From: Gemmata obscuriglobus
GTDB taxonomy: Bacteria; Planctomycetota; Planctomycetia; Gemmatales; Gemmataceae
Direction of reading: 5' to 3'
NCBI RefSeq assembly: GCF_008065095.1
Contig: NZ_CP042911.1
Coordinates: forward strand, 7,590,001-7,622,000
Length of the DNA stretch: 32,000 nt
Below the pieces are notes generated by a model, which was not told the origin of the DNA, did not search any database, and saw only the letters and a program-made list of their open reading frames with translations. Below, one piece after another: positions 2,299-26,689 of the stretch. The stretch's first letter is position 1. Every line of letters starts with the position of its first letter. A program made the translations under genes and the position numbers.

Positions 2299-2817
2299 CT
2301 ACTTGCCCGGCTTCTCGGCGGGCTTGGCCGCCAGTTGCTTCTCCAGTTCGGCCACCTTCCTGGTCAGGTCCGCGATCTCCTTGCGCCGCCCCTCGTCCAC
2401 CTGGGCGGCCGTGTCGGCATACGTCTTCTGCTGTGCCGCCTCGGCGCGGAGCCGCTCGACCTCCTCGCTCAGCACGCGCGCCTGCCGTCGGAACTCGTCC
2501 CGCTCGGCGCGGAGCTCCTGCAGCTCGGTCTCGTCCGGCTCCGGGGCGGCCGCGCCGTCCACCGCGGCCAGCACCCGGCCGCGCTCGTCCGTGAACGTGA
2601 CGGTGCCCGCGTTGGCCCGGCCGTTGTCGTGCCGGGCGGCGTGCTGCCCGAGCGCGTCCGGGAACCGCCCGGCCTTGCCCGCGTCCGGGCTCCACTCGGT
2701 CACCTGCCCGGTGCCGGTGACGACCTGGACCCCGCTGCCGTCGCTCGACAGCTTCGCGTCCAGGCTCACCGCGTAGTGCACCAGCCCGCCCTTCTCCCGC
2801 CTGATCGACACCGCCAT
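2299..2817 (-). CDS. hypothetical phage protein with C-terminal coiled coil
   Basis: Internal ATG at 2817 of track ORF 2299-3084 (MAVSIRREKGGLVHYAVSLDAKL...). GGAG lies upstream. The C-terminal heptad-like region is ELQELRAERDEFRRQARVLSEEVERLRAEAAQQ. The track's N-terminal extension runs into the array leader and is rejected. Confidence 0.6.
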   Translation of the reverse strand: MAVSIRREKGGLVHYAVSLDAKLSSDGSGVQVVTGTGQVTEWSPDAGKAGRFPDALGQHAARHDNGRANAGTVTFTDERGRVLAAVDGAAAPEPDETELQELRAERDEFRRQARVLSEEVERLRAEAAQQKTYADTAAQVDEGRRKEIADLTRKVAELEKQLAAKPAEKPGK

Positions 2818-2892
2818 GACCCGCTCCGAATGAGGTGCGCGCGGGCGCCGCGCCCGGAAACGCTGGAAGGAAGTGCCTTCAGTGTGCGGGAG

Positions 2893-2909
2893 CGGGTTGC
2901 CCGGATGAA
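2893..2909 (-). promoter_or_regulatory. conserved 17-nt motif GGGTTGCCCGGATGAAA (copy 1 of 3)
   Basis: The identical 17-mer occurs at 2893, 11249 and 28026. Each copy lies 46-76 nt upstream (minus sense) of a phage gene start (2817, 11179, 27978). Confidence 0.4.
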
Positions 2910-2986
2910 ATTGCGCGCGGTTCGACGGGTGAGGTGCCAGCGGAACAATACGGACGAACGGGCGCGCGGGCACTCGACCGAAAAGA

Positions 2987-3157
2987 AATGAGGGTCTTGA
3001 GCGCAGGCGACGACGCCGGTACACTTCTGGGCGTGCCGGCTCGGGCGGCGCGGAAGAACGCGTCGGCTCGCACGAGTGGGGCAATTGTTACCGGGCGCAG
3101 CATCGAAGTGCTCTTCCCGTTCGCACGGGCCGTTACCGTGTTATTGTGCGAGCCGTG
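2987..3157 (+). CDS. candidate 56-aa leader ORF (MRVLSAGDDAGTLLGVPARAARKNASARTSGAIVTGRSIEVLFPFARAVTVLLCEP)
   Basis: Conserved in both leaders. All six A/B differences between 3073 and 3127 fall on third codon positions and are synonymous in this frame. An antisense frame sharing the same wobble positions cannot be fully excluded. Confidence 0.35.
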
Positions 3158-3334
3158 AAGGGGCGAGTCGAAGTTTCGCACGGCCCATTACCGTGTTATT
3201 GCGCATATTGTGAAGACGCCCTTCACACGGTAACGATAAGGCCGGTCAGGAGTTCGGTCCCCGGCGCGCGGTGCGCTGGGTGAAATCATCCCGTGTTATT
3301 GCGCGAAGCCTCGCACACTAAACACTGGTTCGGC

Positions 3335-3569
3335 AACCATCGCGTGCAGGAGCGCGCGTGCGGCGCGTGGGCGTGTGGTCCGCGGTGGTAAAGCCCGTAT
3401 GTCGGGCTCCGCGTGGTGCCGGTGGTTGCGGGCGCGGCTCGTCGCCGCGAGGTGCGGTTGGTGCCGGCCTCCGGTGGGCCGGGACACGGTAGCGCGGGTC
3501 GGCGGTGGTGGCTCCGCGGATGCGCGGTACGAGCGCGGGCTCCGCGGAATCGCAACTGCCCGCGCAGAA
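3335..3569 (+). other. non-coding cassette NC-A1 (G/T-rich modular family; head, 1 module, tail type 1)
   Basis: Head CATCGCGTGCAGGAGCGCGCGTGCGG. One GCTCCGCGTGGTGCC...GCGCGGCTCGTCGCCGCGAGGTGCGGT module. The tail carries two TCCGCGGA palindromes. Confidence 0.7.
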
Positions 3570-3660
3570 GCCGAACCCGGCGCTGCACCTGACACCGCCC
3601 GCTAGTTTGTGACGCATTGCTGACTGTATGATGGCGGTGCAGGTGAGCTTTATGTTCGGC
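3570..3660 (+). repeat. attC-like site A1
   Basis: 91 nt, consensus arms, R'' GCCGAAC and R' GTTCGGC. Confidence 0.85.
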
Positions 3661-4360: not shown

Positions 4361-4450
4361 GCCGAACCCTCCGCTGCACCAGACTCGCGCATGCAGAACT
4401 CGGGGATCGCCCCCTCCAGGGCGCGCGAGCAGGTGAGCTCCACATTCGGC
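4361..4450 (+). repeat. attC-like site A3 (divergent; R' is ATTCGGC)
   Basis: GCCGAACCCTCCGCTGCACCAGACTCGCGC...GCGCGCGAGCAGGTGAGCTCCACATTCGGC. The inner stem is replaced by a compensating TCGCGC/GCGCGA pair. Confidence 0.7.
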
Positions 4451-4771
4451 AACCCGAGGGCGCTGGATCGCGCGTGCGGCGGTGGTGGGCGTGTGGTCCG
4501 CGTGGGTGAACTCCGGTGTCGGGCTCCGCGTGGTGCCCGCCGGTGTGTGGCGCGGCTCATCGCCGCGAGGTCCGGTTGGGCGTGGTCGGCGGTGCATCGG
4601 ATCGGTGGTGCTCCGCGTGGTGCCCGTGGTTGGCGGGCGCGGCTCACCGCCGCGGGTGTCGGTGGTGGGCGGCCACCGGTGTGCCGCGGCACGGTGGTGC
4701 GGGTCGGTGGTGGCTCCGCGGATGCGCGGCGCGGGCGCGGGCTCCGCGGAACCGCGACGGTGGGCGCAGAA
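4451..4771 (+). other. non-coding cassette NC-A2 (head, 2 modules, tail type 1)
   Basis: GCGCGGCTC anchors at 4550 and 4637 (spacing 87). The tail carries two TCCGCGGA palindromes. Confidence 0.7.
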
Positions 4772-4861
4772 GCCGAACCCGGCGCTGCACCTGACACCGC
4801 CGGCTGATTCGGGAGGCATCGCTCATCGGGACGGGCGGTGCAGGTGAGCTGTATGTTCGGC
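4772..4861 (+). repeat. attC-like site A4
   Basis: 90 nt, consensus arms. Confidence 0.85.
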
Positions 4862-5355: not shown

Positions 5356-5826
5356 GTGTTCGAGTTCCGGGTGACGAAGTACGACCCGGCCCACCGCGAT
5401 AGCCGCGGGGCGTACACGCGGGACGAGTGGATCGCCGTCAGCGACATCGGCCAAGCGTTCGGCGGGGTGGTCCTCACCGAAGCCGAGTATCGGCGGGTCG
5501 AGGATGCCTACGTCGCTGCCGCCATCGCGTTCTTACGGGAGGCAGGCGTCGAGGCGCTGTCCGTGGCCGGGCTGGAGAACCACGCCCGCGTGCCGCTGCC
5601 GTTCGCGGACGGGTCGTCGCTCGGGCTGGCCGAGGCGGGCGGTGTCGTCCGGCGGTTGCTGCGGGCGGAGTTCTGGTGCCGGCTGGAGGGCGCGGGGGCA
5701 TTCGTCCACGTCGGGTACGACTACTACATGTACGTCGGGGTGCCGGTGGCGTGCCCGGGCGCGGTTGCGGACGCCCGGCAACTCGGCCTGTTCCCCGAGC
5801 CGTTCCGGTCGCCGTACCACGAGTAA
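5356..5826 (+). CDS. hypothetical cassette protein
   Basis: Track ORF of 156 aa. GTG start 9 nt after AGAGAGG. Own stop. MFEFRVTKYDPAHRDSRGAYTRDEWIAVSDIG... Confidence 0.6.
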   Translation: MFEFRVTKYDPAHRDSRGAYTRDEWIAVSDIGQAFGGVVLTEAEYRRVEDAYVAAAIAFLREAGVEALSVAGLENHARVPLPFADGSSLGLAEAGGVVRRLLRAEFWCRLEGAGAFVHVGYDYYMYVGVPVACPGAVADARQLGLFPEPFRSPYHE

Positions 5827-5832
5827 AGGCAC

Positions 5833-5923
5833 GCCGAACCCGGCGCTGCACCTGACACCGCCCGCTAGACTGCGACGCTCCGCTCATCCGATGATGGCGG
5901 TGCAGGTGAGCTTTATGTTCGGC
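5833..5923 (+). repeat. attC-like site A6
   Basis: 91 nt, consensus arms. Confidence 0.85.
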
Positions 5924-6381
5924 AACCATCGCGTGCAGGAGCGCGCGTGCGGCGGCGCTGACGGTGTGGTCCGCGTGGGTGAACCTCGCGCGTCGGGCTC
6001 CGCGTGGTGCCGATCGGGTCTGGCGCGGCTCGCCGCCGCGAGCTTGCGGTGGGCGTGGCCGGCGGTATCGTGGGACACGGTAGTTCGGGGCGGTGGTGCT
6101 CCGCGTGGTGCCGTTCGGGGCCGGCGCGGCTCATCGCCGCGAGGTGCGGTTGGGCGTGGCGGGCAGTGCGTCGGGACACGGTGGTGCGAGTCGGTGGCGC
6201 TCCGCGTGGTGCCGATCGGGGCTGGCGCGGCTCGTCGCCGCGAGGTGCGGTGGTGGGTGGCCACCGGTGGGCCGGGACACGGCGCGCGGGGTCGGTGGTG
6301 CTCCGCCCGCCCGCATCGGTGGCACGTGCTCCGCGGAGCCGCGGTGCTCGGCGTGCGACCCGGAACCGCGGTGGTCCGCGA
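5924..6381 (+). other. non-coding cassette NC-A3 (head, 3 modules, tail type 2)
   Basis: GCGCGGCTC anchors at 6023, 6124 and 6225. The spacing is 101 and 101 nt, not a multiple of 3. Confidence 0.75.
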
Positions 6382-6472
6382 GCCGAACCCGGCGCTGCAC
6401 CTGACACCGCCGGCTGATTCGGGACGCACTGCTCATCCGGTGGTGGCGGTGCAGGTGAGCTATTTGTTCGGC
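6382..6472 (+). repeat. attC-like site A7
   Basis: 91 nt, consensus arms. Confidence 0.85.
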
Positions 6473-6806
6473 ACCCAGAAGGGCGCTTGATCGCGCGTGC
6501 GGTGGTGTGCGTGTGGTCCGCGTGGGTGTACCTCGCGCGTCGTGCTCCGCGTGGTGCCGATCGGGTCTGGCGCGGCTCGCCGCCGCGAGGTGCGGTTGGG
6601 CATGGTCCGTGATGTGCGGCGACACGGTGGTGCGGGTCGGTGGTGCTCCGCGTGGTGCCCGCCGGTGGTGGGCGCGGCTCATCGCCGCGGGTGGCGGTGG
6701 TGGGCGGCCACCGGTGTGCCGCGGCACGGCGCGCAGGGGCGGTGGTGGCTCCGCGGATGCGCGGTACGAGCGCGGGCTCCGCGGAACCGCAACGGCCCGC
6801 GCAGAA
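6473..6806 (+). other. non-coding cassette NC-A4 (head, 2 modules, tail type 1)
   Basis: Same family. Module spacing is 102 nt. Confidence 0.7.
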
Positions 6807-6897
6807 GCCGAACCCGGCGCTGCACCTGACACCGCCATCTGATCCGGGACGCATCGCTCATCGTGTGATGGCGGTGCAGGTGAGCTTTATGTTCGGC
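6807..6897 (+). repeat. attC-like site A8
   Basis: 91 nt, consensus arms. Confidence 0.85.
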
Positions 6898-7254
6898 AAC
6901 CATCGCGCGCGTGAGGGCGCGTGTGGTGCTGGGCGTGTGATCCGCGCGGGTGAACCCCGCGTGTGGCGCTCCGCGTGGCGCCCGTGGGTGTGTGTCGCGG
7001 CTCATCGCCGCGAGGTGCGGTTGGTCGTGGCCGGGCGCGGGTGCGGACACGGTGATTGGGGGTCGGTGGTGCTCCGCGTAGTGCCCGTGGGTGGTCGGCG
7101 CGGCTCATCGCCGCGAGGTGCGGTGGTGGGCGGCCCCCGATGTGTGGCGACACGGCGTGCGGAGTCGGTGGTGCTCCGCCCGCCCGCACTGGTGGCGCGG
7201 CCTCCGCGGATGCGCGGCGCTCGGCGTATCGCCCGGAACCGCCGAGGGCATCGA
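6898..7254 (+). other. non-coding cassette NC-A5 (head, 2 modules, tail type 2)
   Basis: Same family. Anchors at 6995 and 7098 (spacing 103 nt). Confidence 0.7.
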
Positions 7255-7345
7255 GCCGAACCCGGCGCTGCACCTGACACCGCCCGCTGATCTGGGACGC
7301 ACCGCTCATCGTGTGATGGCGGTGCAGGTGAGCTTTCTGTTCGGC
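7255..7345 (+). repeat. attC-like site A9
   Basis: 91 nt, consensus arms. Confidence 0.85.
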
Positions 7346-7362
7346 CGCAGAGGGCATCGCGG

Positions 7363-7848
7363 ATGGGTGCGGTGGTGGACGAGGCCCGGAAGCTGCTCCC
7401 CAACCTCTCGCAGGACGACCTGGGGTGGTCCGGCACTGCGTTCGTGCCGTGCTGGGGTGCCGAGTTGGACATCCACCTCACCTGCCACGACGGGGTGATG
7501 GAGGCTCGGCAGGTCGAGACCGTCCGCGCGCTCCTCGGCCACACCGAGGACATCCGGCCGGGGTTCGAGCGGGCGCTGTTCGACTACTACCAAGAGGACG
7601 TGGACGGCACCTACTGTGCCTACGGGCCGGACGGGCCGATCCCCGGGTCCGGCCCGCCGAAACTGACCGAGCCGTCCCAGGTGTGGCCGCTCATCGACGG
7701 GCCGGAGGTGTACATCAAGTGGTTCGCCCGCACCCAGTCGGCGGTCGAGTTCGAGCTGAGCTTCAACTGCGAGTGGGATCGGGAGCACGGTCTCGGGGTC
7801 TTGTACCACGACTTCCGCCCCGTTGAGTTCGGTGGCTGGGACTTGTAG
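7363..7848 (+). CDS. hypothetical cassette protein (tentatively DUF6985-like immunity-type protein)
   Basis: Track ORF of 161 aa. ATG follows AGAGGGC. C-terminal ...FNCEWDREHGLGVLYHDFRPVEFGGWDL. Own stop. Confidence 0.6.
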   Translation: MGAVVDEARKLLPNLSQDDLGWSGTAFVPCWGAELDIHLTCHDGVMEARQVETVRALLGHTEDIRPGFERALFDYYQEDVDGTYCAYGPDGPIPGSGPPKLTEPSQVWPLIDGPEVYIKWFARTQSAVEFELSFNCEWDREHGLGVLYHDFRPVEFGGWDL

Positions 7849-8476: not shown

Positions 8477-8566
8477 GCCGAACCCGGCGCTGCACCTGAC
8501 ACCGCCATCGGGTTTGGGACGCACCGCTCATCGGGGCGGGCGGTGCAGGTGAGCTATTTGTTCGGC
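8477..8566 (+). repeat. attC-like site A11
   Basis: 90 nt, consensus arms. Confidence 0.85.
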
Positions 8567-8582
8567 CACGGAGGGCGCCAGG

Positions 8583-9056
8583 GTGTATGTCGTAGCTTGT
8601 GCGGTCGTCGTACTGGTGGCGGTTCCGAACGTTCGCGAGAACCGGGAACTCGAAGAGCTGTGGGTACGAGAGGTGGCAACTCACTTCCTTGATGCCGCAC
8701 TTGCCGAGAACTTCAAGGAGGCACTTGCGTCGGCAACCGGCGAGTTTCGCCAGCGACTCAAGCAATCATCGAAGTTGTTTTACCCCGAGGACGAATTCTC
8801 TGGGCTTAAGCAGGTTATTTGGCCAGCAACCTGGAAGGCCGGACTTGCGGACGCGGGAGCATATCCCGTCGCCCGCCGCAGTCAACTGTCGCCTGCGGGG
8901 GACGAAGCACGGGTTACCGGTAAAATTCTGATCGGTCAGAGAGGCTCACGGAAGGCAATCGCACAGTTCAGCACCACACTGAACAAACAGACCGACGGAA
9001 AATGGCGTGTCAATGGGTTGACGGTCCAGACCTTTAAGACAACGGGAGCGCCGTAA
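8583..9056 (+). CDS. hypothetical exported or membrane-anchored protein
   Basis: Track ORF of 157 aa. GTG start after GGAGGGC. Hydrophobic N-terminus VYVVACAVVVLVAV. Lower GC than the flanks. Confidence 0.55.
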   Translation: MYVVACAVVVLVAVPNVRENRELEELWVREVATHFLDAALAENFKEALASATGEFRQRLKQSSKLFYPEDEFSGLKQVIWPATWKAGLADAGAYPVARRSQLSPAGDEARVTGKILIGQRGSRKAIAQFSTTLNKQTDGKWRVNGLTVQTFKTTGAP

Positions 9057-9196
9057 GGCCAACCGGTGAGGTGTCTGATCGCCCCGCGGCCGTGCGGTAA
9101 GATACGGGGGCCGCACTCATACCGACGTGTCGCGGTGGCTCTGCGGATGCGCGATGGTGGCGCGGGCTCCGCGGATGCGCCACGGTGGGCGCGGAA

Positions 9197-9313
9197 GCCG
9201 AACCCGGCGCTGCACCTGACACCGCCATGTAGTCTGTTTACCGCTGCTCCCCACGTTTTGGTTAGCCTTGGTAGCAATCCCGGCCGGGCAGGTGAGCTGT
9301 ATGTTCGTTCGGC
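9197..9313 (+). repeat. attC-like site A12 (long, imperfect 3' arm, duplicated core GTTCGTTCGGC)
   Basis: 117 nt. Consensus 5' arm; the 3' arm is CGGCCGGGCAGGTGAGC. Confidence 0.7.
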
Positions 9314-9340
9314 TACCAGATACCCCAAGGGGCGTAGCGC

Positions 9341-9829
9341 ATGAATCGCCTTTTGTACATTATAGCGGTTGGATTACTCGCCGCAGGTTGCAACAAGGGC
9401 AAGAATCACGAGCAGAAAGACTCCGCGCGCGAAATTAAAGCCGGCGAGTCGTTCGAGGACGAGGGGCTTGTGATCAGCGTGAAGGAGATCGCGAAGACAG
9501 ATTCCGGGCTCGTGCTGGCGATCAAGGTCGCGAACAGACACGCGGGCAAGGTCCATTACTTGCCGTCGTGGGATGAGCATCCTGAACCGGCTCGGATTAC
9601 CGACGAATACCGAAACGTCTTTTACGCAGCCGGCGCTCGTGACCATCCGCTGCGACCGCCGCTCAATCGCCAGTGGTACGGGACGTTCTCCGGCAACCGG
9701 ATCGATCCCAACAAAAGTGGAGACCTCTTTATTCCCCTTGATGATATTCCGCCATCGAGCAAGCGGTTGCGTGTCGAGTTGCCCTACGGAGGACGCACGC
9801 TGGTATTCGTTGATGTGCCGAGGCGTTAG
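9341..9829 (+). CDS. lipoprotein (signal peptide with lipobox LLAAGC)
   Basis: Track ORF of 162 aa. MNRLLYIIAVGLLAAGCNKG. Clearly lower GC than the window average. Confidence 0.65.
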   Translation: MNRLLYIIAVGLLAAGCNKGKNHEQKDSAREIKAGESFEDEGLVISVKEIAKTDSGLVLAIKVANRHAGKVHYLPSWDEHPEPARITDEYRNVFYAAGARDHPLRPPLNRQWYGTFSGNRIDPNKSGDLFIPLDDIPPSSKRLRVELPYGGRTLVFVDVPRR

Positions 9830-9892
9830 TAGCGCTTAGACGCTGAGCTAGGAGTGTGTCGATATTACGGGTTGCACACGCACAGCCCGAGG

Positions 9893-9922
9893 GCAGAACC
9901 CGGCGCTGCACCTGGCACCGCC
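9893..9922 (+). repeat. terminal half attC (R''-L'' arm only)
   Basis: GCAGAACCCGGCGCTGCACCTGGCACCGCC with no 3' arm. It ends 23 nt from the stop of the TerL C-terminal fragment. Confidence 0.6.
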
Positions 9923-9945
9923 GTCTGAACCTTCTCCCCTTGCCC

Positions 9946-10671
9946 TCACAACCCGTTCCCGCTGGCGAACACACCGGCGGGCGCCCCGCCGATCGCGCTC
10001 GCGTCTCGCTCGTCGGGCACGCCGATTCCGGCCGCGTCCCCGCCCCCGCTGTGCTCCGCCAGCCAGCAGCACAGCGCAACGGCCATCACGATGTCGTCGT
10101 GCTGGCTCTGCTCGGCCCCGAAGGTCACGTTCTTCGACTTGGTGACGTGCTCGCGGAACGCTTGCAGCTCCTTCTCGAACCGCCCGATCAGGGGCAGCGC
10201 CCCCCGGGTGTTTGGGGCCTGCCACTTGAGCAGCTCGTTCTCCAGCAGCACGACCAGCGTGGAGACCAGCTCCTTCTTGGGAACGTGCCAGGAGCGGTCC
10301 TTGGTCTCGTCGGGAGTGCTGATCGAGTGCCCGGCGGTGATGCACACGGGGTGCAACCGGGCCTTCACCCGGGCCGCCATGACCTGCTCGATCACCGCCA
10401 TGCCGACGCCGGTGTAGTCCGCCGCGAGCGTCGTCCACGTCAGCGCCGGCTGCTCGTACAGCGCCTTCACGTCGCCGATCACGGACCGCTCGCCGGGCCG
10501 GGTCGCGGTGTACCGCGTGCCCAGGTCCCAGCTCTGCAGCCACCGGACGGAGTACGAGAACCGCCGCTTCGCGACGGGCTTGTCGAGCTTGCGGCGCCCG
10601 ACCGTGGCCAGGACGCTGAAGTCCGCGGCCTTGCCCAGGTCGAGGCCGCTGAACAGCTTCTCGGGGTTCAC
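9946..10671 (-). CDS. terminase large subunit, C-terminal RNase H-like nuclease domain only (split gene)
   Basis: In frame with track ORF 9946-10731. A GTG at 10671 overlaps the upstream stop (GTGA). VNPEKLFSGLDLGKAADFSVLATV...DYTGVGMAVIE...QHDDIVMAVALCCW matches the TerL nuclease Asp motifs. No ATPase domain lies upstream in frame. Confidence 0.8.
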   Translation of the reverse strand: MNPEKLFSGLDLGKAADFSVLATVGRRKLDKPVAKRRFSYSVRWLQSWDLGTRYTATRPGERSVIGDVKALYEQPALTWTTLAADYTGVGMAVIEQVMAARVKARLHPVCITAGHSISTPDETKDRSWHVPKKELVSTLVVLLENELLKWQAPNTRGALPLIGRFEKELQAFREHVTKSKNVTFGAEQSQHDDIVMAVALCCWLAEHSGGGDAAGIGVPDERDASAIGGAPAGVFASGNGL

Positions 10672-10778
10672 TCCCACAGCCCGCCCCTCGGGATCACGTC
10701 GTAATCGTGCCGGCCGTCGTCGCGGCCCCACGGGTCCGCCCGCCGGTCCGGGTCGGACGTGGGCGGATTCGGGTTCAC
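10668..10778 (-). CDS. possible 36-aa ORF bridging two GTGA overlaps
   Basis: VNPNPPTSDPDRRADPWGRDDGRHDYDVIPRGGLWE. Its start overlaps the stop of 10775-11179, and its stop overlaps the TerL-C start. Confidence 0.25.
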   Translation of the reverse strand: MNPNPPTSDPDRRADPWGRDDGRHDYDVIPRGGLWE

Positions 10779-11179
10779 GACCGCGCCGCCAGCTGCTTCG
10801 CGAGTGCCTCGGTCTTGGCGGCCTGGCCCTGCTGGTACGGCATCCAGGTGCAGTACGCCCCGCCGCCCGGAGGCACGCTGCCCGCGGAGAGCAGCGGCAC
10901 CGACGTGGGCGGGTTCGGGACCGGGTTGCCGCTCGCGTCGAAGACCGCGAGGTTCACCACCGTGTCGCTCCACACGTGGGCGACGAGCGCCGGCAGCGGC
11001 TGATCGCTCGGCAACCGGCCCGCCGGGAAGAACCACACCACCCGGCCCACGGTCGGCGTGATGACGGGCGGGGGCGTGAAGGTGCTCGGGGACGGCACCG
11101 CGCCGTCGAGGCGCGAGCGCACGAACAGGCACGCGGCACGTTTCAGCACGGCCAGGAGGATCGCTTTCAGGTTCGGCAC
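10775..11179 (-). CDS. hypothetical phage protein (134 aa)
   Basis: GTG at 11179, in frame with track ORF 10775-11593 (the remainder of that ORF is array leader). ...GRVVWFFPAGRLPSDQPLPALVAHVWSDTVVNLAVFDASGNPV... G/C-rich third positions. The start is uncertain. Confidence 0.5.
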   Translation of the reverse strand: MPNLKAILLAVLKRAACLFVRSRLDGAVPSPSTFTPPPVITPTVGRVVWFFPAGRLPSDQPLPALVAHVWSDTVVNLAVFDASGNPVPNPPTSVPLLSAGSVPPGGGAYCTWMPYQQGQAAKTEALAKQLAARS

Positions 11180-11248
11180 GGTCGAGGCCCTCGGCGGACG
11201 GAGCGGAGGTGCGGGCGCCCGCACCTGACGAGCCCAGTGTGCGAGAAG

Positions 11249-11265
11249 GGGTTGCCCGGATGAAA
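11249..11265 (-). promoter_or_regulatory. conserved 17-nt motif GGGTTGCCCGGATGAAA (copy 2 of 3)
   Basis: Identical 17-mer, upstream (minus sense) of the start at 11179. Confidence 0.4.
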
Positions 11266-11342
11266 TTGCGAGCGGCGCGACGGCTGAGATGCCGGCGGAA
11301 CGAGACGGACGAACGGGCGCGCGGGCACTCGACCGAAAAGAA

Positions 11343-11513
11343 ATGAGGGTCTTGAGCGCAGGCGACGACGTGGGTACACTTCTGAGCGTGTCGGCTCGGA
11401 CGGCGCGGAAGAACGCGTCGGCTCGCACAAGCGGGGCAATTGTTACCGGGCGAAGTATCGAAGTGCTCTTCCCGTTCGCGCGAGCCGTTACCGTGTTATT
11501 GTGCGAGCCGTGA
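11343..11513 (+). CDS. candidate 56-aa leader ORF, copy B
   Basis: Same frame and length as 2987-3157. Four replacements in the N-terminal half and six synonymous changes in the C-terminal half. Confidence 0.35.
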   Translation: MRVLSAGDDVGTLLSVSARTARKNASARTSGAIVTGRSIEVLFPFARAVTVLLCEP

Positions 11514-11688
11514 AGGGCGAGTCGAAGTTTCGCACGGGCCGTTACCGTGTTATTGCGCATATTGTGAAGATGCCCTTCACACGGTAACGACAAGCCCGGT
11601 CAGGAGTTCGGTCCCCGGCGCGCGGTGCACCGGGTGAAATAGTCCCGTGTTATTGTGCGAAGCCTCGCACACTAAACACTGGTTCGGC

Positions 11689-12048
11689 CACCTTCGCGTT
11701 CTGGATCGCGCGTGCGGTGGTGGGCGTGTGGTCCGCGAAGGTGACGCCCACGCGTCGGTGGTGGCTCCGCGTGGTGCCGGTCGGGGCGGGCGCGGCTCGT
11801 CGCCGCGAGGTGTGGTTGGGCGTGGCCGGGGTGCGGGTGGGGACACGGCGGTTCGGGTCGGTGGTGCTCCGCGTGGCGCGCGTCAGGGCGGGCGCGGCTC
11901 GTCGCCGCGAGGTGCGGTGATGGGTGGCCACCGGTGGGCCGCGACACGGCGATTCGAGTCGGTGGGGCTCCGCTCGGCCGCACCGGTGCCGCGGGTTCCG
12001 CGGATGCGCCAAGCTCGGCGTGTCGCCCGGAACCGCGGAGGCGAGCGA
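11689..12048 (+). other. non-coding cassette NC-B1 (2 modules, tail type 2)
   Basis: Anchors at 11790 and 11892 (spacing 102). Confidence 0.7.
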
Positions 12049-12138
12049 GCCGAACCCGGCGCTGCACCTGACACCGCCATCAGCCGCCGTTGTGTCGCTC
12101 ACTCCATCCTGGCGGTGCAGGTGAGCTTTCTGTTCGGC
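12049..12138 (+). repeat. attC-like site B1
   Basis: 90 nt, consensus arms. Confidence 0.85.
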
Positions 12139-12490
12139 CACCCGAGCGTGCTGGAGCGCCCGTGCGGCGGTGTGCGTGTGGCCCGCGTGGGTGAACCCCG
12201 CGGGTCGGGCTCCGCGTGGTGCCGGTCGGGTCTGGCGCGGCTCGCCGCCGCGAGGTGCGGTGGGCGTGGCCCGGTGTGGGTGGGGACACGGCGGGTCGGA
12301 TCGGTGGTGTTCCGCGTGGTGCCCGTGGGTGGCCGGCGCGGCTCATCGCCGCGAGGTGCGGTTGGTGCCGGCCTCCGATGGGCCGCGACACGGCGCATCG
12401 GGTCGGTAGCGCTCCGCCCGGTCGCACCGGTGGCCCGGGCATCCGCAGATGCGCGGCACTGAGCGCGCCCGGAACCGCCGAGGGCATCGA
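12139..12490 (+). other. non-coding cassette NC-B2 (2 modules, tail type 2)
   Basis: Anchors at 12235 and 12336 (spacing 101). Confidence 0.7.
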
Positions 12491-12580
12491 GCCGAACCCG
12501 GCGCTGCACCTGACACCGCCATCGGCCACCGTTGCGATGCTCACTGTATGATGGCGGTGCAGGTGAGCTCATTGTTCGGC
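12491..12580 (+). repeat. attC-like site B2
   Basis: 90 nt, consensus arms. Confidence 0.85.
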
Positions 12581-13799: not shown

Positions 13800-13890
13800 G
13801 CCGAACCCGGCGCTGCACCTGACACCGCCATCTGATTCGGAACGCACCGCTCATCCGGTGATGGCGGTGCAGGTGAGCTGTATGTTCGGC
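13800..13890 (+). repeat. attC-like site B4
   Basis: 91 nt, consensus arms. Confidence 0.85.
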
Positions 13891-14225
13891 AACCATCGCG
13901 TGCATGAGGGCGCGTGCGGCGGTGTGCGTGTGGTCCGCGAAGGTGACGCCCGCGTGTGGTGCTCCGCGTGGTGCCCGTGGGTGTGTGGCGCGGCTCGCCG
14001 CCGCGAGGTGCGGTTGGGCGTGGCCGGTGATGCGTGGGGACACGGTGGTGCGTGTCGGTGGTGCTCCACGGGGCGCCCGCCGGTGGTCGGCGCGGCTCAT
14101 CGCCGCGGGTGTCGGTGGTGGGTGGCCTCCGGCGTGCCGCGACACGGCGCGTGGGGTCGGTGGTGGCTCCGCTCGCACGCACCGGTGGGCGGGCTCCCGC
14201 GGATGCGCGGCGCGGACGTGAGCGA
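13891..14225 (+). other. non-coding cassette NC-B3 (2 modules)
   Basis: Anchors at 13988 and 14090 (spacing 102). Confidence 0.7.
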
Positions 14226-14316
14226 GCCGAACCCGGCGCTGCACCTGACACCGCCCGCTGATCCGGGGCGCATCGCTCATCGTGTGATGGCGGTGCAGGT
14301 GAGCTTTATGTTCGGC
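14226..14316 (+). repeat. attC-like site B5
   Basis: 91 nt, consensus arms. Confidence 0.85.
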
Positions 14317-14780: not shown

Positions 14781-14870
14781 GCCGAACCCGGCGCTGCACC
14801 GGACCGCTGTAAACTACGCACTCGGTAGACCGTGTCGCGGCGTGCGCGGCCGGTGAGCTATTTGTTCGGC
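14781..14870 (+). repeat. attC-like site B6 (arm variant 2)
   Basis: GCACCGGACCGC...GCGGCCGGTGAGC. 90 nt. Confidence 0.8.
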
Positions 14871-15228
14871 ACCCAGAGGTCGCTTGATCGCGCGTGCGGC
14901 GGCGGTGAGCGTGTGGTCCGCGTGGGTGAACCCCGCGTGTCGGGCTTCGCGTGGTGCCAATCGGGGCGGGCGCGGCTCGTCGCCGCGAGGTGCGGTTGGG
15001 CGTGGCCGGATGCGGGTGGGGACACGACGGGTCGGCTCGGTGGTGCTCCGCGTGTGGCCCGTGGGTGGCGGGCGCGGCTCACCGCCGCGAGTTGCGGTGG
15101 TGGGTGGTCTCCGGCGTGCCGCGACACGGCGCGCGGGGTCGGTGGTGCTCCGCCCGCCCGCATCGGTGGCACGGGCTCCGCGGAGGCGCGGCGCTCGGCG
15201 TGTCGCCCCGAACCGCGGTGGTAAGCGA
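14871..15228 (+). other. non-coding cassette NC-B4 (2 modules, tail type 2)
   Basis: Anchors at 14970 and 15072 (spacing 102). Confidence 0.7.
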
Positions 15229-15319
15229 GCCGAACCCGGCGCTGCACCTGACACCGCCCGCTAGTCTGGGACGCATCGCTGACGGTATGATGGCGGTGCA
15301 GGTGAGCTGTTCGTTCGGC
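15229..15319 (+). repeat. attC-like site B7
   Basis: 91 nt, consensus arms. Confidence 0.85.
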
Positions 15320-15655
15320 CACCCGAGGGCGCTCGATCGCGCGGGCGGCGGTGGTGGGCGTGTGGTCCGCATGGGTGAACCCCGCGTGCCGTGCTCCGCG
15401 TGGTGCCGATCGGGACGGGCGCGGCTCGCCGCCGCGAGGTGCGGGTGGGCGTGGCTGGTGGTGCCGTGGGACACGGTGGTGCGGGTCGGTGGTGCTCCGC
15501 GTGTGGCCCGTGGGTGTCTGGCGCGGCTCACCGCCGCGAGGTGCGGTGGTGGGTGGCCCCCGGTGTGCCGCGGCACGGTGGTGCGGGTCGGTGGTGGCTC
15601 CGCGGAACCGCGACGCGGGCGCGGGCTCCGCGGAACCGCACATCCCAGCGCAGAA
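15320..15655 (+). other. non-coding cassette NC-B5 (2 modules, tail type 1)
   Basis: Anchors at 15419 and 15521 (spacing 102). Confidence 0.7.
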
Positions 15656-15746
15656 GCCGAACCCGGCGCTGCACCTGACACCGCCATCTGTTCTGGGACG
15701 CACCGCTCATCCGGTGATGGCGGTGCAGGTGAGCTTTATGTTCGGC
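15656..15746 (+). repeat. attC-like site B8
   Basis: 91 nt, consensus arms. Confidence 0.85.
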
Positions 15747-15764
15747 AACCAGAGGGCGCAGCGG

Positions 15765-16049
15765 ATGGGTAGCAGCGAAGCGAGCCTGCCTCTTTACGAT
15801 CACTGCTCGCTGTGCGGCGCAGCAATCCGCAGGTGCGATTCGGTGGTGACCATCGAACGGCACGAAGAGCAGGTGTGTGCAAACGGCGACGTCGAGATCA
15901 CTCGAGCGGAGGTGCTGGTGTCGCTTTGCATGCCTTGTGGGCAGCGTTACCCGCTGTCGGTTACACGGGTCGAGTTGGGCGGTCAAGCGTTCATCGGCGC
16001 GAAGTGGCCCGAGGCCGAACCCGGCGCTGCACCTGACACCGCCCGCTGA
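15765..16049 (+). CDS. hypothetical Cys-rich cassette protein (94 aa)
   Basis: ATG at 15765 after AGAGGGCGC. MGSSEASLPLYDHCSLCGAAIRRCDS...CMPCGQRY. The stop (TGA) is supplied by the attC loop, giving the tail AEPGAAPDTAR. Confidence 0.55.
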   Translation: MGSSEASLPLYDHCSLCGAAIRRCDSVVTIERHEEQVCANGDVEITRAEVLVSLCMPCGQRYPLSVTRVELGGQAFIGAKWPEAEPGAAPDTAR

Positions 16050-16104
16050 TTCGGAACGCATCGCGGCCCGGGACCTCGCGGTGCAGGTGAGCTGTTCGTT
16101 CGGC
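16014..16104 (+). repeat. attC-like site B9
   Basis: 91 nt. The 3' arm is CGCGGTGCAGGTGAGC. Confidence 0.85.
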
Positions 16105-16119
16105 AGGAAGAGGGCGCGG

Positions 16120-16626
16120 ATGGGGAACGTCCGGCTGAGAACGGTGACCTATTCGGACCTCTCCGCTTTGCGGCACGAAGTGGCGGTCGTCGATGGCCCG
16201 CAGTTCCAACCTCCCGAGTTCCTCGTCGTTCGCTACTTCGGCTCCTATCGCGATGGGTCCGAGGGCACGCCGGACGCCAAGTACATCCTCGCCGCGTCCG
16301 CAGCCGCCCGGGAGGCGTGGTGGTCACGGTGTACCGTCCTCGACTTCCGTGAGCTCGTGTACCGCTGGGGAGACAACATGGCGTGGGTCACTCAGATCGG
16401 GCGCGATGGGGTGACCAAGCTCCAGTGGCCGCTCGCCATCGTGGTTGGGGACGGTTGTCGTGATGCACTCCGGTCACTGTTGCGGGACGAGTATGCGGGT
16501 CTGTGCGTGGAGTCGCTGGACGAGGCGTTTACCCTCTGCCGAGTTAAGGCTGAGGAGCATGAGCGACAGCTCAAGCAATGGCGGCCGCGGGCCGAACCCG
16601 GCGCTGCACCTGACACCGCCGGCTGA
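16120..16626 (+). CDS. hypothetical cassette protein (168 aa), copy 1 of 3
   Basis: ATG at 16120 after AAGAGGGCGC. MGNVRLRTVTYSDLSALRHEVAVVDGPQF... The stop lies in the attC loop. Confidence 0.6.
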   Translation: MGNVRLRTVTYSDLSALRHEVAVVDGPQFQPPEFLVVRYFGSYRDGSEGTPDAKYILAASAAAREAWWSRCTVLDFRELVYRWGDNMAWVTQIGRDGVTKLQWPLAIVVGDGCRDALRSLLRDEYAGLCVESLDEAFTLCRVKAEEHERQLKQWRPRAEPGAAPDTAG

Positions 16627-16681
16627 CTTGTGACGCATCGCTCATTCGATGATGGCGGTGCAGGTGAGCTCTTTGTTCGGC
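16591..16681 (+). repeat. attC-like site B10
   Basis: 91 nt, consensus arms. Confidence 0.85.
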
Positions 16682-16695
16682 AACAGAGGGCGCTG

Positions 16696-17259
16696 ATGGC
16701 AGCGGATGAGGTGGTCCCGCACATCGGCATCCGGTCGCTCGCCGGCATGGTGCGGCTGGGCATGACCCGCGCGGAAGTACAACCCCTGCTCGACCAGGAT
16801 CGCGACATCCGGGTGGATTTCCGCGGTGATCCACCGGTGGTGGCGTTCGTCGAATCGCCCAAGCACTGGGGATCGTTCGAGGGCATCGACCTGTTCGAGG
16901 CCGGGGCCGACGAGGTCATCGCCGAGATCGCCGAGCGGCTCGGGTTGGCGCCAGAAGTGTACCGGCCAGGGCGGCACTCGTACTACTTCCCCGATCTGCG
17001 CATGGGCCTGTGGCGGAGTTGCGTGTCGGACGAGGACGGCGACCAGGGCTTCACGTTCGACAGCGTGAGCGTCCACGCGCCGGGGTACTACGATCCCACG
17101 GGACTGGCGTTCATCCGGCATCAGGGCGGGCTGCCTCCGGAGCAGAGGCACGCCGAACCCGGCGCTGCACCTGACACCGCCCGCTGTATTGTGACGCACC
17201 GCTCATCCGGTCATGGCGGTGCAGGTGAGCTAATTGTTCGGCCACCATCGCGTGCATGA
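16696..17259 (+). CDS. hypothetical cassette protein; the frame reads through the whole attC
   Basis: ATG at 16696 after CAGAGGGCGC. MAADEVVPHIGIRSLAGMVRLGMTRAEVQPLL... There is no stop in the attC loop, so the ORF continues 17 nt into the next cassette. Confidence 0.55.
   Translation: MAADEVVPHIGIRSLAGMVRLGMTRAEVQPLLDQDRDIRVDFRGDPPVVAFVESPKHWGSFEGIDLFEAGADEVIAEIAERLGLAPEVYRPGRHSYYFPDLRMGLWRSCVSDEDGDQGFTFDSVSVHAPGYYDPTGLAFIRHQGGLPPEQRHAEPGAAPDTARCIVTHRSSGHGGAGELIVRPPSRA
17152..17242 (+). repeat. attC-like site B11
   Basis: 91 nt, consensus arms. Confidence 0.85.
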
Positions 17260-17605
17260 GCGCGGGCGGCGGCGGTGGTGGTGAGCGTGTGGTCCGCGGC
17301 GCGTCCGGCGGTGCTGTGGTGCTCCGCGTGGTGCCCGAGTGTGACGGGCGCGGCTCAGCGCCGCGAGGTGCGGTTGGGCGTGGCCGGGGTGCGGGTGGGG
17401 ACACGATCGGGCGTGTCGGTGGTGCTCCGCGTGGTGCCGGTGGGTGGCGGGCGCGGCTCATCGCCGCGAGGTGCGGTGGTGGGCGGCCTCCGATGGGTCG
17501 GGATACGGTGGTGCGGGTCGGTGGTGCTCCGCTCGGCCGCACCGGTGCCGCGGGCATCCGCAGATGCGCGGCACTGAGCGCGCCCGGAACCGCCGAGGGC
17601 ATTGA
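17243..17605 (+). other. non-coding cassette NC-B6 (2 modules, tail type 2)
   Basis: Anchors at 17349 and 17451 (spacing 102). Duplicated at 18220-18582. Confidence 0.7.
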
Positions 17606-17696
17606 GCCGAACCCGGCGCTGCACCTGACACCGCCCGCTGATCCGGGACGCACCGCTTATCCGGCGATGGCGGTGCAGGTGAGCTTTACGTTCGGC
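17606..17696 (+). repeat. attC-like site B12
   Basis: 91 nt, consensus arms. Confidence 0.85.
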
Positions 17697-18165: not shown

Positions 18166-18219
18166 CTTGGAACGCATCGCTCCTTGGGAGGGGCGGTGCA
18201 GGTGAGCTATTTGTTCGGC
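18130..18219 (+). repeat. attC-like site B13
   Basis: 90 nt, consensus arms. Confidence 0.85.
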
Positions 18220-18582
18220 CACCATCGCGTGCATGAGCGCGGGCGGCGGCGGTGGTGGTGAGCGTGTGGTCCGCGGCGCGTCCGGCGGTGCTGTGGTGCT
18301 CCGCGTGGTGCCCGAGTGTGACGGGCGCGGCTCAGCGCCGCGAGGTGCGGTTGGGCGTGGCCGGGGTGCGGGTGGGGACACGATCGGGCGTGTCGGTGGT
18401 GCTCCGCGTGGTGCCGGTGGGTGGCGGGCGCGGCTCATCGCCGCGAGGTGCGGTGGTGGGCGGCCTCCGATGGGTCGGGATACGGTGGTGCGGGTCGGTG
18501 GTGCTCCGCTCGGCCGCACCGGTGCCGCGGGCATCCGCAGATGCGCGGCACTGAGCGCGCCCGGAACCGCCGAGGGCATTGA
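18220..18582 (+). other. non-coding cassette NC-B7 (copy of NC-B6)
   Basis: By eye the sequence matches 17243-17605. The track translations are identical (for example 17275-17577 and 18252-18554). Confidence 0.7.
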
Positions 18583-18673
18583 GCCGAACCCGGCGCTGCA
18601 CCTGACACCGCCCGCTGATCCGGGACGCACCGCTTATCCGGCGATGGCGGTGCAGGTGAGCTTTACGTTCGGC
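18583..18673 (+). repeat. attC-like site B14
   Basis: 91 nt. Same as B12. Confidence 0.85.
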
Positions 18674-20186: not shown

Positions 20187-20262
20187 TTCGTTTCCCGGCG
20201 CTCCCCGGTCGGCCGTGTGCGCTACTGGTGTCGCGGCCGGGCCGGTGAGCTTTATGTTCGGC
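20151..20262 (+). repeat. attC-like site B17 (arm variant, long loop)
   Basis: 112 nt. CACCGGACCCGGCC...GGCCGGGCCGGTG. Confidence 0.8.
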
Positions 20263-20619
20263 CACCCCGAGCCGCTCGATCGCGCGTGCGGCGGCGGTGG
20301 GCGTATGGCCCGCGTGGGTGAACCGCGCGTGTGGTGCTCCGCGTGGTGCCGGCGGTGGCGGGCGCGGCTCGCCGCCGCGAGCTTGCGGTGGTCGTGGCCG
20401 GGTGCGGATGGGTGCACGGTGGTGCGGGTCGGTGGTGCTCCGCTGAGACCGATCGGTTGCGGGCGCGGCTCATCGCCGCGTGTGGCGGTGGTGGGTGGCC
20501 CTCGGTGTGCCGGGACACGGCGCGCGGAGTCGGTGGTGCTCCGCCCGGTCGCACCGGTGGCACGGGCTCCGCAGATGCGCGGCGCTCGGCGTGTTGCCCG
20601 GAACCGCGGAGGGGAGCGA
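20263..20619 (+). other. non-coding cassette NC-B9 (2 modules, tail type 2)
   Basis: Anchors at 20362 and 20463 (spacing 101). Confidence 0.7.
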
Positions 20620-20710
20620 GCCGAACCCGGCGCTGCACCTGACACCGCCCGCTCTACTGCGACGCTCCGCTCATCCGGTGATGGCGGTGCAGGTGAGCTT
20701 GTTGTTCGGC
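20620..20710 (+). repeat. attC-like site B18
   Basis: 91 nt, consensus arms. Confidence 0.85.
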
Positions 20711-20725
20711 AGGAAGAGGGCGCGG

Positions 20726-21232
20726 ATGGGGAACGTCCGGCTGAGAACGGTGACCTATTCGGACCTCTCCGCTTTGCGGCACGAAGTGGCGGTCGTCGAT
20801 GGCCCGCAGTTCCAACCTCCCGAGTTCCTCGTCGTTCGCTACTTCGGCTCCTATCGCGATGGGTCCGAGGGCACGCCGGACGCCAAGTACATCCTCGCCG
20901 CGTCCGCAGCCGCCCGGGAGGCGTGGTGGTCACGGTGTACCGTCCTCGACTTCCGTGAGCTCGTGTACCGCTGGGGAGACAACATGGCGTGGGTCACTCA
21001 GATCGGGCGCGATGGGGTGACCAAGCTCCAGTGGCCGCTCGCCATCGTGGTTGGGGACGGTTGTCGTGATGCACTCCGGTCACTGTTGCGGGACGAGTAT
21101 GCGGGTCTGTGCGTGGAGTCGCTGGACGAGGCGTTTACCCTCTGCCGAGTTAAGGCTGAGGAGCATGAGCGACAGCTCAAGCAGTGGCGGCCGCGGGCCG
21201 AACCCGGCGCTGCACCTGACACCGCCGGCTGA
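20726..21232 (+). CDS. hypothetical cassette protein (168 aa), copy 2 of 3
   Basis: Same protein as 16120-16626. Confidence 0.6.
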   Translation: MGNVRLRTVTYSDLSALRHEVAVVDGPQFQPPEFLVVRYFGSYRDGSEGTPDAKYILAASAAAREAWWSRCTVLDFRELVYRWGDNMAWVTQIGRDGVTKLQWPLAIVVGDGCRDALRSLLRDEYAGLCVESLDEAFTLCRVKAEEHERQLKQWRPRAEPGAAPDTAG

Positions 21233-21287
21233 CTTGTGACGCATCGCTCATTCGATGATGGCGGTGCAGGTGAGCTCTTTGTTCGGC
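21197..21287 (+). repeat. attC-like site B19
   Basis: 91 nt, consensus arms. Confidence 0.85.
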
Positions 21288-21788: not shown

Positions 21789-21879
21789 GCCGAACCCCGC
21801 GCTGCACCGGACCGCGGCGACCGAAGCTGATTCCAGTGTTCATGCTCACACGCCGCGGCCGGTGAGCTCATTGTTCGGC
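21789..21879 (+). repeat. attC-like site B20 (arm variant 2)
   Basis: CACCGGACCGCGGC...GCCGCGGCCGGTG. 91 nt. Confidence 0.8.
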
Positions 21880-22237
21880 CACCATCGCGTGCATGATCGC
21901 GCGGGCGGCGGTGCTGGGCGTGTGGTCCGCATGGGTGAACTCCGCGTGTCGGGCTCCGCATTATGCCGGTGGTCGCGGGCGCGGCTCATCGCCGCGAGCT
22001 TGCGGTGAGCGTGGCCGGCGGTGTCGTGGGACACGGCGTTTCGTGTCGGTGGTGCTCCGCGTGGCGCCCGTGGGTGGTGGGCGCGGCTCATCGCCGCGAG
22101 GTGCGGTTGGGCGTGGGCTCCGGTGTGCCGCGACACGGCGCGTCGGGTCGGTGGTGGCTCCGCTCGGCCGCGTCGGTGGGCGGGCTCCGCGGCGCCGCAG
22201 TGCTCGGCGTGAGGCCCGGAACCGCGGTGGTCAGCGA
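21880..22237 (+). other. non-coding cassette NC-B10 (2 modules)
   Basis: Anchors at 21979 and 22081 (spacing 102). Confidence 0.7.
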
Positions 22238-22328
22238 GCCGAACCCGGCGCTGCACCTGACACCGCCATCGGCATTGTGACCCACTGCTCATCGTATGAT
22301 GGCGGTGCAGGTGAGCTGTTCGTTCGGC
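22238..22328 (+). repeat. attC-like site B21
   Basis: 91 nt, consensus arms. Confidence 0.85.
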
Positions 22329-23731: not shown

Positions 23732-23786
23732 TTCGGACCCCGCCGCTCATCCGATGATGGCGGTGCAGGTGAGCTATTTGTTCGGC
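23696..23786 (+). repeat. attC-like site B24
   Basis: 91 nt, consensus arms. Confidence 0.85.
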
Positions 23787-23804
23787 AACCAGAGGGCGCA
23801 GCGG

Positions 23805-24089
23805 ATGGGTAGCAGCGAAGCGAGCCTGCCTCTTTACGATCACTGCTCGCTGTGCGGCGCAGCAATCCGCAGGTGCGATTCGGTGGTGACCATCGAACGG
23901 CACGAAGAGCAGGTGTGTGCAAACGGCGACGTCGAGATCACTCGAGCGGAGGTGCTGGTGTCGCTTTGCATGCCTTGTGGGCAGCGTTACCCGCTGTCGG
24001 TTACACGGGTCGAGTTGGGCGGTCAAGCGTTCATCGGCGCGAAGTGGCCCGAGGCCGAACCCGGCGCTGCACCTGACACCGCCCGCTGA
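23805..24089 (+). CDS. hypothetical Cys-rich cassette protein, copy 2
   Basis: Same protein as 15765-16049 (offset 8040). Confidence 0.55.
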   Translation: MGSSEASLPLYDHCSLCGAAIRRCDSVVTIERHEEQVCANGDVEITRAEVLVSLCMPCGQRYPLSVTRVELGGQAFIGAKWPEAEPGAAPDTAR

Positions 24090-24144
24090 TTCGGAACGCA
24101 TCGCGGCCCGGGACCTCGCGGTGCAGGTGAGCTGTTCGTTCGGC
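24054..24144 (+). repeat. attC-like site B25
   Basis: Copy of B9. Confidence 0.85.
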
Positions 24145-24159
24145 AGGAAGAGGGCGCGG

Positions 24160-24721: not shown

Positions 24722-24735
24722 AACAGAGGGCGCTG

Positions 24736-26679: not shown

Positions 26680-26689
26680 CCGCTGCGGT

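Follow-up and report, generated by a model that had tools for sequence, protein, structure and literature searches.

The usual view of an integron cassette array is that of a store of promoterless genes. Gene-less cassettes are the current lead on the question of how long chromosomal arrays are expressed and maintained far from any Pc promoter. In four Vibrio species, promoter activity was detected for most of the gene-less cassettes examined, predominantly on the sense strand, by reporter assays, reverse-transcription quantitative PCR and rapid amplification of 5' cDNA ends; such a role had been shown earlier in Treponema (PMC11014356). According to the same paper, these Vibrio promoters are not identifiable in silico. 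Integrons are also reported in Planctomycetes in the survey by Cury et al. 2016 (PMC4889954), and clusters of attC sites have been reported in phage genomes (PMC9892861). Here we describe a 32,000-nt stretch of DNA from Gemmata obscuriglobus (contig NZ_CP042911.1, positions 7,590,001–7,622,000; ~399.9–431.9 kb of CP025958.1), hereafter the window. At its positions 5924–6381, a first-pass annotation had noticed modules of 101–103 nt and taken them for a conserved RNA structure. We find that these modules form a tandem repeat inside the members of a family of integron cassettes that carry no gene, a context that the annotation overlooked. The module family evolves under constraint on its sequence and not on its base pairing.

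The region 5924–6381 is flanked on both sides by copies of an imperfect inverted repeat of ~90 nt, GCCGAAC-CCGGC-GCT(G)CACCTG(A)CACCGCC ... GGCGGTGCAGGTGAGC-TTTAT-GTTCGGC. Thirty-seven left arms of this repeat (GCTGCACCTGACACCGCC) and the matching right arms (GGCGGTGCAGGTGAGC) are located between 3582 and 25721, all on the + strand, where 0.08 left and 1.4 right arms would be expected by chance. Every site carries the cores GCCGAAC ... GTTCGGC, which correspond to the outer cores R'' (RYYYAAC) and R' (GTTRRRY) of attC sites. Position 4 of both cores is off consensus (G and C), yet these two bases are complementary to each other. Folded as single-stranded DNA, the bottom strand forms the standard attC layout of a 7-bp R box, a 5x5 unpaired spacer, an L stem and a variable loop, with z-scores of –3.7 to –5.7. 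The L stem comprises 16 bp and has two single-base bulges (extrahelical bases) on its 3' arm. In the RNAalifold consensus, TTCGGC at the start of a cassette pairs with GCCGAA of that cassette's own attC. These sites bound an integron-type array of ~41 cassettes (3329–25721), and the region 5924–6381 is the interior of one of them (5918–6466).

Open reading frames (ORFs) with gene-like GC content at third codon positions (GC3) occur one per cassette on the + strand, as in a co-oriented array; the exceptions are one minus-strand ORF in an oversized interval and some short overlapping frames. Products of the array ORFs include cREC_REC and DUF6985 proteins. Cassettes range in size from ~290 to 1060 nt, apart from the oversized interval of 2375 nt (9308–11682). 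Within the latter, a truncated attC left arm at 9905 is followed by the minus-strand ORF, which encodes 335 amino acids (9946–10953). This ORF has gene-like GC3 but no Pfam or NCBIfam match, and may be an insertion into an attC site. Groups of one to three cassettes are duplicated within the array: 15741–17236 recurs at 23781–25276, and 16099–16675 at 20705–21281 and 24139–24715, as recognized by matching cassette sizes and open frames, while the cassettes 17237–17690 and 18214–18667 are identical copies with the same tandem-repeat rows. This pattern suggests homologous exchange besides site-specific recombination.

Fourteen of the ~41 cassettes in the window belong to the module family. They share a single plan, in which TTCGGC from the previous attC is followed by a leader of ~80 nt, module A, module B, a tail of 40–85 nt belonging to one of two types, and the cassette's own attC. 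Module cassettes are ~425–450 nt in length. The number of modules in the window is two, except for one cassette with three (the one that contains region 5924–6381) and one with a single module. Leader and tail are themselves decayed module copies, and five of the 14 cassettes are preceded by a degenerate R'. The cassettes are G-skewed and have a GC content of ~75%, as compared to a window average of ~69%. One of the two tails, the short one, consists of a 28-nt tandem, GGCTCCGCGGATGCGC..., which is also found at the end of the ORF-bearing cassette 8561–9307 (at 9137–9194); this tail therefore can travel without modules.

The module anchor GCGCGGCTC has 27 exact matches on the + strand of the window and none on the – strand (dinucleotide shuffles: mean 2.6, maximum 7), and Tandem Repeats Finder reports arrays of period 101–103 at every module site. 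Spacings between neighboring anchors in the window are 87 (n=1, at 4550), 101 (n=4, at 6023, 6124, 12235, and 20362), 102 (n=6, at 6570, 11790, 13988, 14970, 15419, and 21979), and 103 (n=3, at 6995, 17348, and 18325). For the pair at 6995, the first anchor is TCGCGGCTC, which has one mismatch. The annotation had listed the same spacings for all units except its B6 (17348 to 17451), which is 103 rather than 102.

The family extends beyond the window. At least four attC arrays are present in G. obscuriglobus; the one in the window occupies 22 kb, and each of the others takes up most or all of a locus of 20 kb. The three further arrays, near 6.65, 2.51, and 2.84 Mb (L063, L064, and L065, respectively), were located by a protein search with a translated cassette, whose matches are spurious 'hypothetical proteins'. 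Across the four arrays, 64 of the 178 cassettes counted (36%) carry modules: two in 51, three in seven, and one in five cassettes. The 73 spacings between neighboring modules are distributed as 100 (6), 101 (21), 102 (35), 103 (9), 105 (1), and 87 (1). Module cassettes recur every two or three cassettes, and runs of three to five in a row also occur. Many other cassettes of these arrays encode SMI1_KNR4/SUKH, Imm1, ankyrin, and DUF1877 proteins, several of which we take to be immunity-protein families.

The module family is confined to Gemmata: G. obscuriglobus, Gemmata algarum JC673, strain JC717, and one metagenome-assembled genome (MAG). In a scan of a genome collection that returned 52 loci, real occurrences were limited to JC673 and the one Gemmata MAG, where they are inside attC arrays, and the protein search with the translated cassette gave matches only in G. 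obscuriglobus, Gemmata sp. JC717, and JC673. Scans of IMG/VR found no modules and one lone attC. This site follows an ORF on a Gemmata-like, predicted viral contig (IMGVR_UViG_2600255093_000004, ~2740–2825), is of the same attC family, and has ATTCGGC as its R'. A metagenome scan with a pattern that left hairpin 2 (see below) free, so as to admit stem variants, gave three chance matches and no module. By BLAST against a phage collection, the cassettes had no match, and the flanks matched only short stretches of terminase and DnaJ. Our literature search found no paper combining Gemmata with attC sites or cassette arrays.

Like the gene-less 'promoter cassettes' of Vibrionaceae and Treponema, the module cassettes are bounded by attC sites, contain no ORF, and are interspersed in large chromosomal arrays. 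They are ~430 nt in length, as compared to 491–666 nt, and make up 36% of cassettes, as compared to 6–49% in Vibrio species (PMC11014356). Unlike in Vibrio, one single conserved family dominates the gene-less cassettes here, and its members are GC-rich and G-skewed rather than AT-rich, are built of a ~102-nt tandem module with an invariant inverted repeat, and have no promoter recognizable by a consensus scan. Cassettes without a gene are already known, and in Vibrio they are common. What is new is that several arrays are dominated by one conserved family that is GC-rich and tandem-modular, such that one non-coding family is the commonest cassette in a genome.

Other non-coding repeats bear a resemblance to the modules as well. 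Mycobacterial interspersed repetitive units and variable-number tandem repeats (MIRU/VNTR), and repetitive extragenic palindromes and bacterial interspersed mosaic elements (REP/BIME), are non-coding units of ~50–100 bp that occur in tandem and in one orientation within transcription units and contain palindromes, as is the case for the Gemmata modules. We know of no sequence relation between these and the modules. Unlike MIRU/VNTR and REP/BIME, the Gemmata modules occur only in attC-bounded cassettes, and their copy number per locus is nearly fixed at two. The RNA antitoxins of type III toxin-antitoxin systems (ToxI-like) also consist of tandem non-coding repeats, with units of ~36 nt. In contrast, the Gemmata units are ~102 nt, there is no toxin gene in the module cassette, and the repeats have no promoter or terminator around them.

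The first cassette of the array adjoins an attI-like edge (3142–3338), which ends exactly at the first GTT of the array. Over 197 nt, this edge shares 97% identity with the left edge of a second array (L064 3816–4011), located ~2.1 Mb away, and looks like a putative attI platform common to the two arrays. The second copy adjoins IS66 and helix-turn-helix-type transposase genes. There was no Phage_integrase match among the scanned ORFs of the window, no integrase gene among the called genes within 10 kb on either side of it (precomputed Pfam), and no intI beside the visible edge of the second array. A Pc-type platform was likewise missing in the window, within 10 kb on either side, and at the visible edge of the second array, so that a complete integron (intI, attI, and Pc) is not found in any of these places. 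Because there is no intI nearby, the array files as a CALIN (an attC cluster without an integron-integrase) as defined by Cury et al. 2016 (PMC4889954). It has the attC-bounded cassettes of a CALIN and has prophage genes on both sides. As compared to CALINs, however, the Gemmata arrays are very long (~41 cassettes here; four or more arrays in the genome exceed 18 kb), and two of them have the attI-like left edge in common. Their attC sites are highly alike, whereas the abstract of that survey reports particularly low attC similarity in CALINs (PMC4889954).

The module family is old. Among 46 distinct two-module cassettes, pairwise identity has a median of 79.6% (5–95% range, 74–85%), and 0.3% of pairs exceed 97%. 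The median and the near lack of near-identical pairs therefore exclude a recent burst. Three blocks are near-invariant, being conserved to the same degree as the arms and cores of attC: the leader block CGTGTGGTCCGC, and GGCGCGGCTC-NN-CGCCGCGAG, which is found in both module A and module B. These blocks are retained in three other Gemmata genomes, and the cassettes keep both the order of A before B and the number of two modules. Such a pattern of conservation would call for selection on sequence, or else for very targeted conversion. With a constraint on the blocks as strong as that on recombination sites, the cassettes constitute a clean, repeated, and easily mutated test object for the function of non-coding cassettes.

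Each module contains two inverted repeats. The 3' arm of hairpin 1 (GTGCC/GGCGC) overlaps the 5' arm of hairpin 2 (CGCGGC-N5-GCCGCG) by 3 nt, as the annotation had noted, and its four examples of hairpin 1 and five loops of hairpin 2 (TCATC, TCGTC, TCACC, TCGCC, and TCAGC) are all found in the sequence. The loop of hairpin 2 consists of a fixed TC, two variable middle bases, and a fixed final C. The stem shows no compensated change. In 51 distinct modules, five of the six pairs are invariant and there is one uncompensated change, and a larger set of 127 distinct modules yields five departures (CC twice, AC twice, and CA once), none of them compensated.

For hairpin 1, the annotation had claimed that the stem lengthens on both arms together in other copies. 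This turned out not to differ from chance: the mean extension is 1.24 pairs, as compared to 1.26 in within-type permutations, with 3600 of 5000 permutations reaching the observed value. In type B, the 5' side of the extension is always CG and the 3' side varies (CG, GT, TC, TG, and CC); type A behaves alike, with the 5' side fixed within each subtype (CG or GR) and only the 3' side varying. The extension is absent in 22 of 46 modules. Overlap with the anchor leaves the 3' arm of hairpin 1 nearly without variation. On the 5' side, the 127 modules show T to C in 17 (still paired), T to G in 10 (broken), and a few losses of the arm; among the 51 modules, seven have T to C at the T-G pair. Hairpin 1 is paired in 83.8% of cells in the 51 modules, as compared to 83.9% in shuffled ones, and its covariation score is 0.108, as compared to 0.116.

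Whole-alignment measures agree. The RNAalifold alignment that had been put forward as a check gave covariation terms of –0.35 kcal/mol for the modules and –0.18 kcal/mol for whole cassettes. By mutual information in 127 modules and 46 cassettes, the top pairs only separate the A and B subtypes or the two tail types. Folding of the 340-nt cassette body is no more favorable than that of its shuffles (z = –1.55 for the + strand and –1.69 for the – strand). At the gathering threshold, the whole window has no Rfam match; at a permissive threshold, 5800–7400 has only chance-level matches (E > 1), two of them on attC sites. Compensatory change, on which the first-pass reading of a conserved RNA structure had relied, is hence missing throughout. 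The inverted repeats themselves are real and strictly in register: sliding the partner out of register lowers pairing to 17–73%, from 83.8% for hairpin 1 and 99.7% for hairpin 2, so that a hairpin in RNA or single-stranded DNA is possible. Only when the paired positions change together does conservation of an inverted repeat become evidence of RNA structure.

The modules do not encode protein. Pairwise comparison of homologous cassettes gives 412 gap runs, of which 264 have a length of 1 nt and just 14% a length that is a multiple of three. Columns vary to much the same extent in each codon phase (0.135, 0.134, and 0.119), and only 37 of the 73 module spacings are divisible by three. A filter on GC3 and GC at second codon positions, which the real genes of the window pass, is failed by every frame of the module cassettes. 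Stop-free frames span whole module cassettes on both strands, since open frames are expected at ~75% GC. The annotation's view that a repeated peptide is unlikely thus holds, with 1-nt indels dominating and no codon periodicity.

We consider it possible, with a probability of about 0.35, that the module cassette is a cis-acting nucleic-acid element that is read sequence-specifically by a putative protein and serves the expression or upkeep of the arrays, as a GC-rich counterpart of the Vibrio promoter cassettes. The candidate recognition site would be the inverted repeat with 6-bp arms and a 5-nt loop, present twice per cassette ~102 bp apart, on either the DNA or the sense transcript. The 28-nt block GGCGCGGCTCNNCGCCGCGAGGTGCGGT is a candidate target of the putative binder. 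Internal signals would be needed because there is no integrase gene or Pc-type platform in the window, in its 10-kb flanks, or at the edge of the second array. The element might keep these very long arrays expressed or otherwise maintained, and selection for this role could account for its interspersion every two or three cassettes.

Several points weigh against this proposal. A consensus scan detected no sigma-70-like promoter or intrinsic terminator in any module cassette. The high GC content and G skew contrast with Vibrio, in which the promoter activity of cassettes is linked to AT-richness (PMC11014356). If the cassette were a promoter, having three to five of them in a row would be superfluous, and the binding protein is only putative. 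The invariant inverted repeat also fits a hairpin in RNA or single-stranded DNA equally well as a duplex binding site. Among motifs picked out by eye, a sigma-54-like TGGTGC-N-TTGC and an ECF-like (extracytoplasmic function) TGAACC-N17/18-CGT in the leader or the hairpin-1 loop are not conserved among copies, and GTTGGGC, a GTTRRRY-like core in type-A modules, is carried by only about half of the copies. It is somewhat doubtful, but conceivable, that the family represents a new class of functional non-coding integron cassette, namely, a two-module nucleoprotein or RNA element, selected or self-spreading to about a third of cassettes, that controls transcription, folding, or recombination of the array. 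If so, the commonest 'gene' stored by the integron would not be a gene.

The cassette might instead act as a structured non-coding RNA: hairpins 1 and 2, possibly as alternatives, would form in the sense transcript of the cassette or of the ~102-nt module, which would work as a small RNA or in a riboswitch-like manner. Such an RNA would fit the strict register of the inverted repeats, the T-G pair of hairpin 1, which is compatible with the + strand only, the T to C changes that keep this pair (7 of 51 and 17 of 127 modules), and the conserved T, C, and C in the loop of hairpin 2. We regard it as unlikely, given that each departure in hairpin 2 breaks a pair, that covariation equals that of shuffles in hairpin 1 and is close to zero in RNAalifold, that mutual information reflects only subtype or tail type, that the fold z-scores are so slight, and that there is no Rfam match, promoter, or terminator. 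Additionally, more than 60 copies per genome at 80% identity would be unusual for a trans-acting RNA. An equally improbable account is that of a selfish or hitch-hiking cassette, spread by easy excision and reinsertion or by unequal crossing-over with no benefit to the host. The high share of cassettes and their tandem runs, the segmental duplications within the array, the small size without an ORF, and the decay of the internal tandem repeat towards both ends, as slippage or unequal exchange predicts, all speak for this account. On the other hand, the copies are old and diverged, with almost none near-identical. Selection or very targeted conversion would be needed to explain the invariant blocks, which three other Gemmata genomes retain, as well as the two-module A-B layout of 51 of 63 cassettes.

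A DNA-level role in recombination or array architecture seems a good deal less plausible still. The hairpins or palindromes would form on single-stranded or supercoiled DNA, and would aid or hinder the folding of nearby attC sites or bind an accessory factor of the recombinase. It is consistent with this idea that the blocks are conserved to the same degree as attC arms, that hairpin 2 is perfectly palindromic and able to form on either strand, and that modules occur only inside attC arrays. However, there is no recombinase gene in the window or within 10 kb, and reading of the sequences revealed no resemblance to attC or to the attI-like edge, no formal comparison having been made. G-quadruplexes formed in DNA or RNA by the GGTGGTGGG runs are very improbable as the basis of the family. 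The + strand is G-rich (GC skew of +0.19 over 6001–7000), and a canonical motif of four G3 runs occurs in three module cassettes. These are only 3 of 14, however, so that the four-run motif is not conserved; G4Hunter maxima are no higher than in ORF cassettes, and the G runs are located in less conserved segments. Least credible is a protein-coding cassette with a repeated peptide on either strand, which could appeal to the stop-free frames across whole cassettes on both strands and to the hypothetical proteins that annotators called over some copies. The GC content makes such frames expected, indels are mostly of 1 nt with no codon-phase pattern, and spacings of 100, 101, and 103 together are as common as 102. 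Further, the called proteins vary in frame and length, with matches only in Gemmata.

Table 1. Coordinates of the cassette array, the module cassettes, and flanking features in the window.
Feature	Position	Strand	Remarks
Cassette array, ~41 cassettes	3329–25721	+	attC sites all co-oriented; no integrase gene in window
attI-like platform (putative)	3142–3334	+	direct repeats CCGTGTTATTG[CT]GC; inverted repeat TTACCGTGT..ACACGGTAA; ends ...CACTG|GTTCGGC
One-module cassette	3329–3654	+	first of array
Two-module cassette	4445–4855	+	first module shortened (giving the spacing of 87)
attC upstream of cassette 5918–6466	5833–5923	+	R'' GCCGAAC ... R' GTTCGGC; recombination point after G5917; fold z = –3.7
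Three-module cassette	5918–6466	+	only one in window; leader 5918–5996; modules 5997–6097, 6098–6198, 6199–6299; tail 6300–6381; attC
Hairpin 1, module 1	6007–6026	+	GTGCC/GGCGC with one T-G pair; base-helix cells 91% paired
Hairpin 2 (inverted repeat), module 1	6024–6040	+	CGCGGC-TCGCC-GCCGCG; most conserved block of the family
attC closing cassette 5918–6466	6382–6472	+	bottom-strand fold z = –3.8
Two-module cassette	6467–6891	+	short tail
Two-module cassette	6892–7339	+	long tail
Module cassette	11683–12132	+	
Module cassette	12133–12574	+	
Module cassette	13885–14310	+	
Module cassette	14865–15313	+	
Module cassette	15314–15740	+	
Module cassette	17237–17690	+	identical copy at 18214–18667
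Module cassette	18214–18667	+	duplicate of 17237–17690
Module cassette	20257–20704	+	
Module cassette	21874–22322	+	
Prophage portal gene	1–2298	–	extends beyond window; Pfam Portal_Mu, E 9e-30
Prophage terminase large subunit	26712–27800	–	ATPase half only; Pfam Terminase_6N; phrog_7579, E 1e-100

The array is located inside a prophage, antisense to the prophage late genes. It lies between the terminase ORF and an ORF for a 172-amino acid coiled-coil protein, which is followed by the portal gene, a very large gene of the Portal_Mu type that is called as 1829 amino acids in the draft genome. The coiled-coil protein is likely to be the product of the gene at 2299–3087. The 262-codon frame there was considered as an integrase or as the nuclease half of the terminase and had no family match; no nuclease half was found near the terminase ORF either. 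Further out from the array are Phage_Mu_F, Prim-Pol, ParB_N, YqaJ, DnaJ, and DNA methyltransferase genes.

Beyond the last attC, a perfect two-copy tandem of a 22-nt unit, CGCGCGTTAACCGCGCGGTTAA, is present at 25868–25912 and is followed by an AT-rich stretch. A strong hairpin with a T-rich tail, GTGCGTCACAC-GGTTTTC-GTGTGACGCAC, is located at 26041–26075 and may serve as a putative terminator for sense transcripts leaving the array. Between this hairpin and the terminase ORF, at 26186–26700, are two paralogous units of ~300 nt that are ~67% identical; this interval is annotated with two short ORFs on the + strand, which encode 43 and 46 amino acids and have tryptophan-rich hydrophobic ends.

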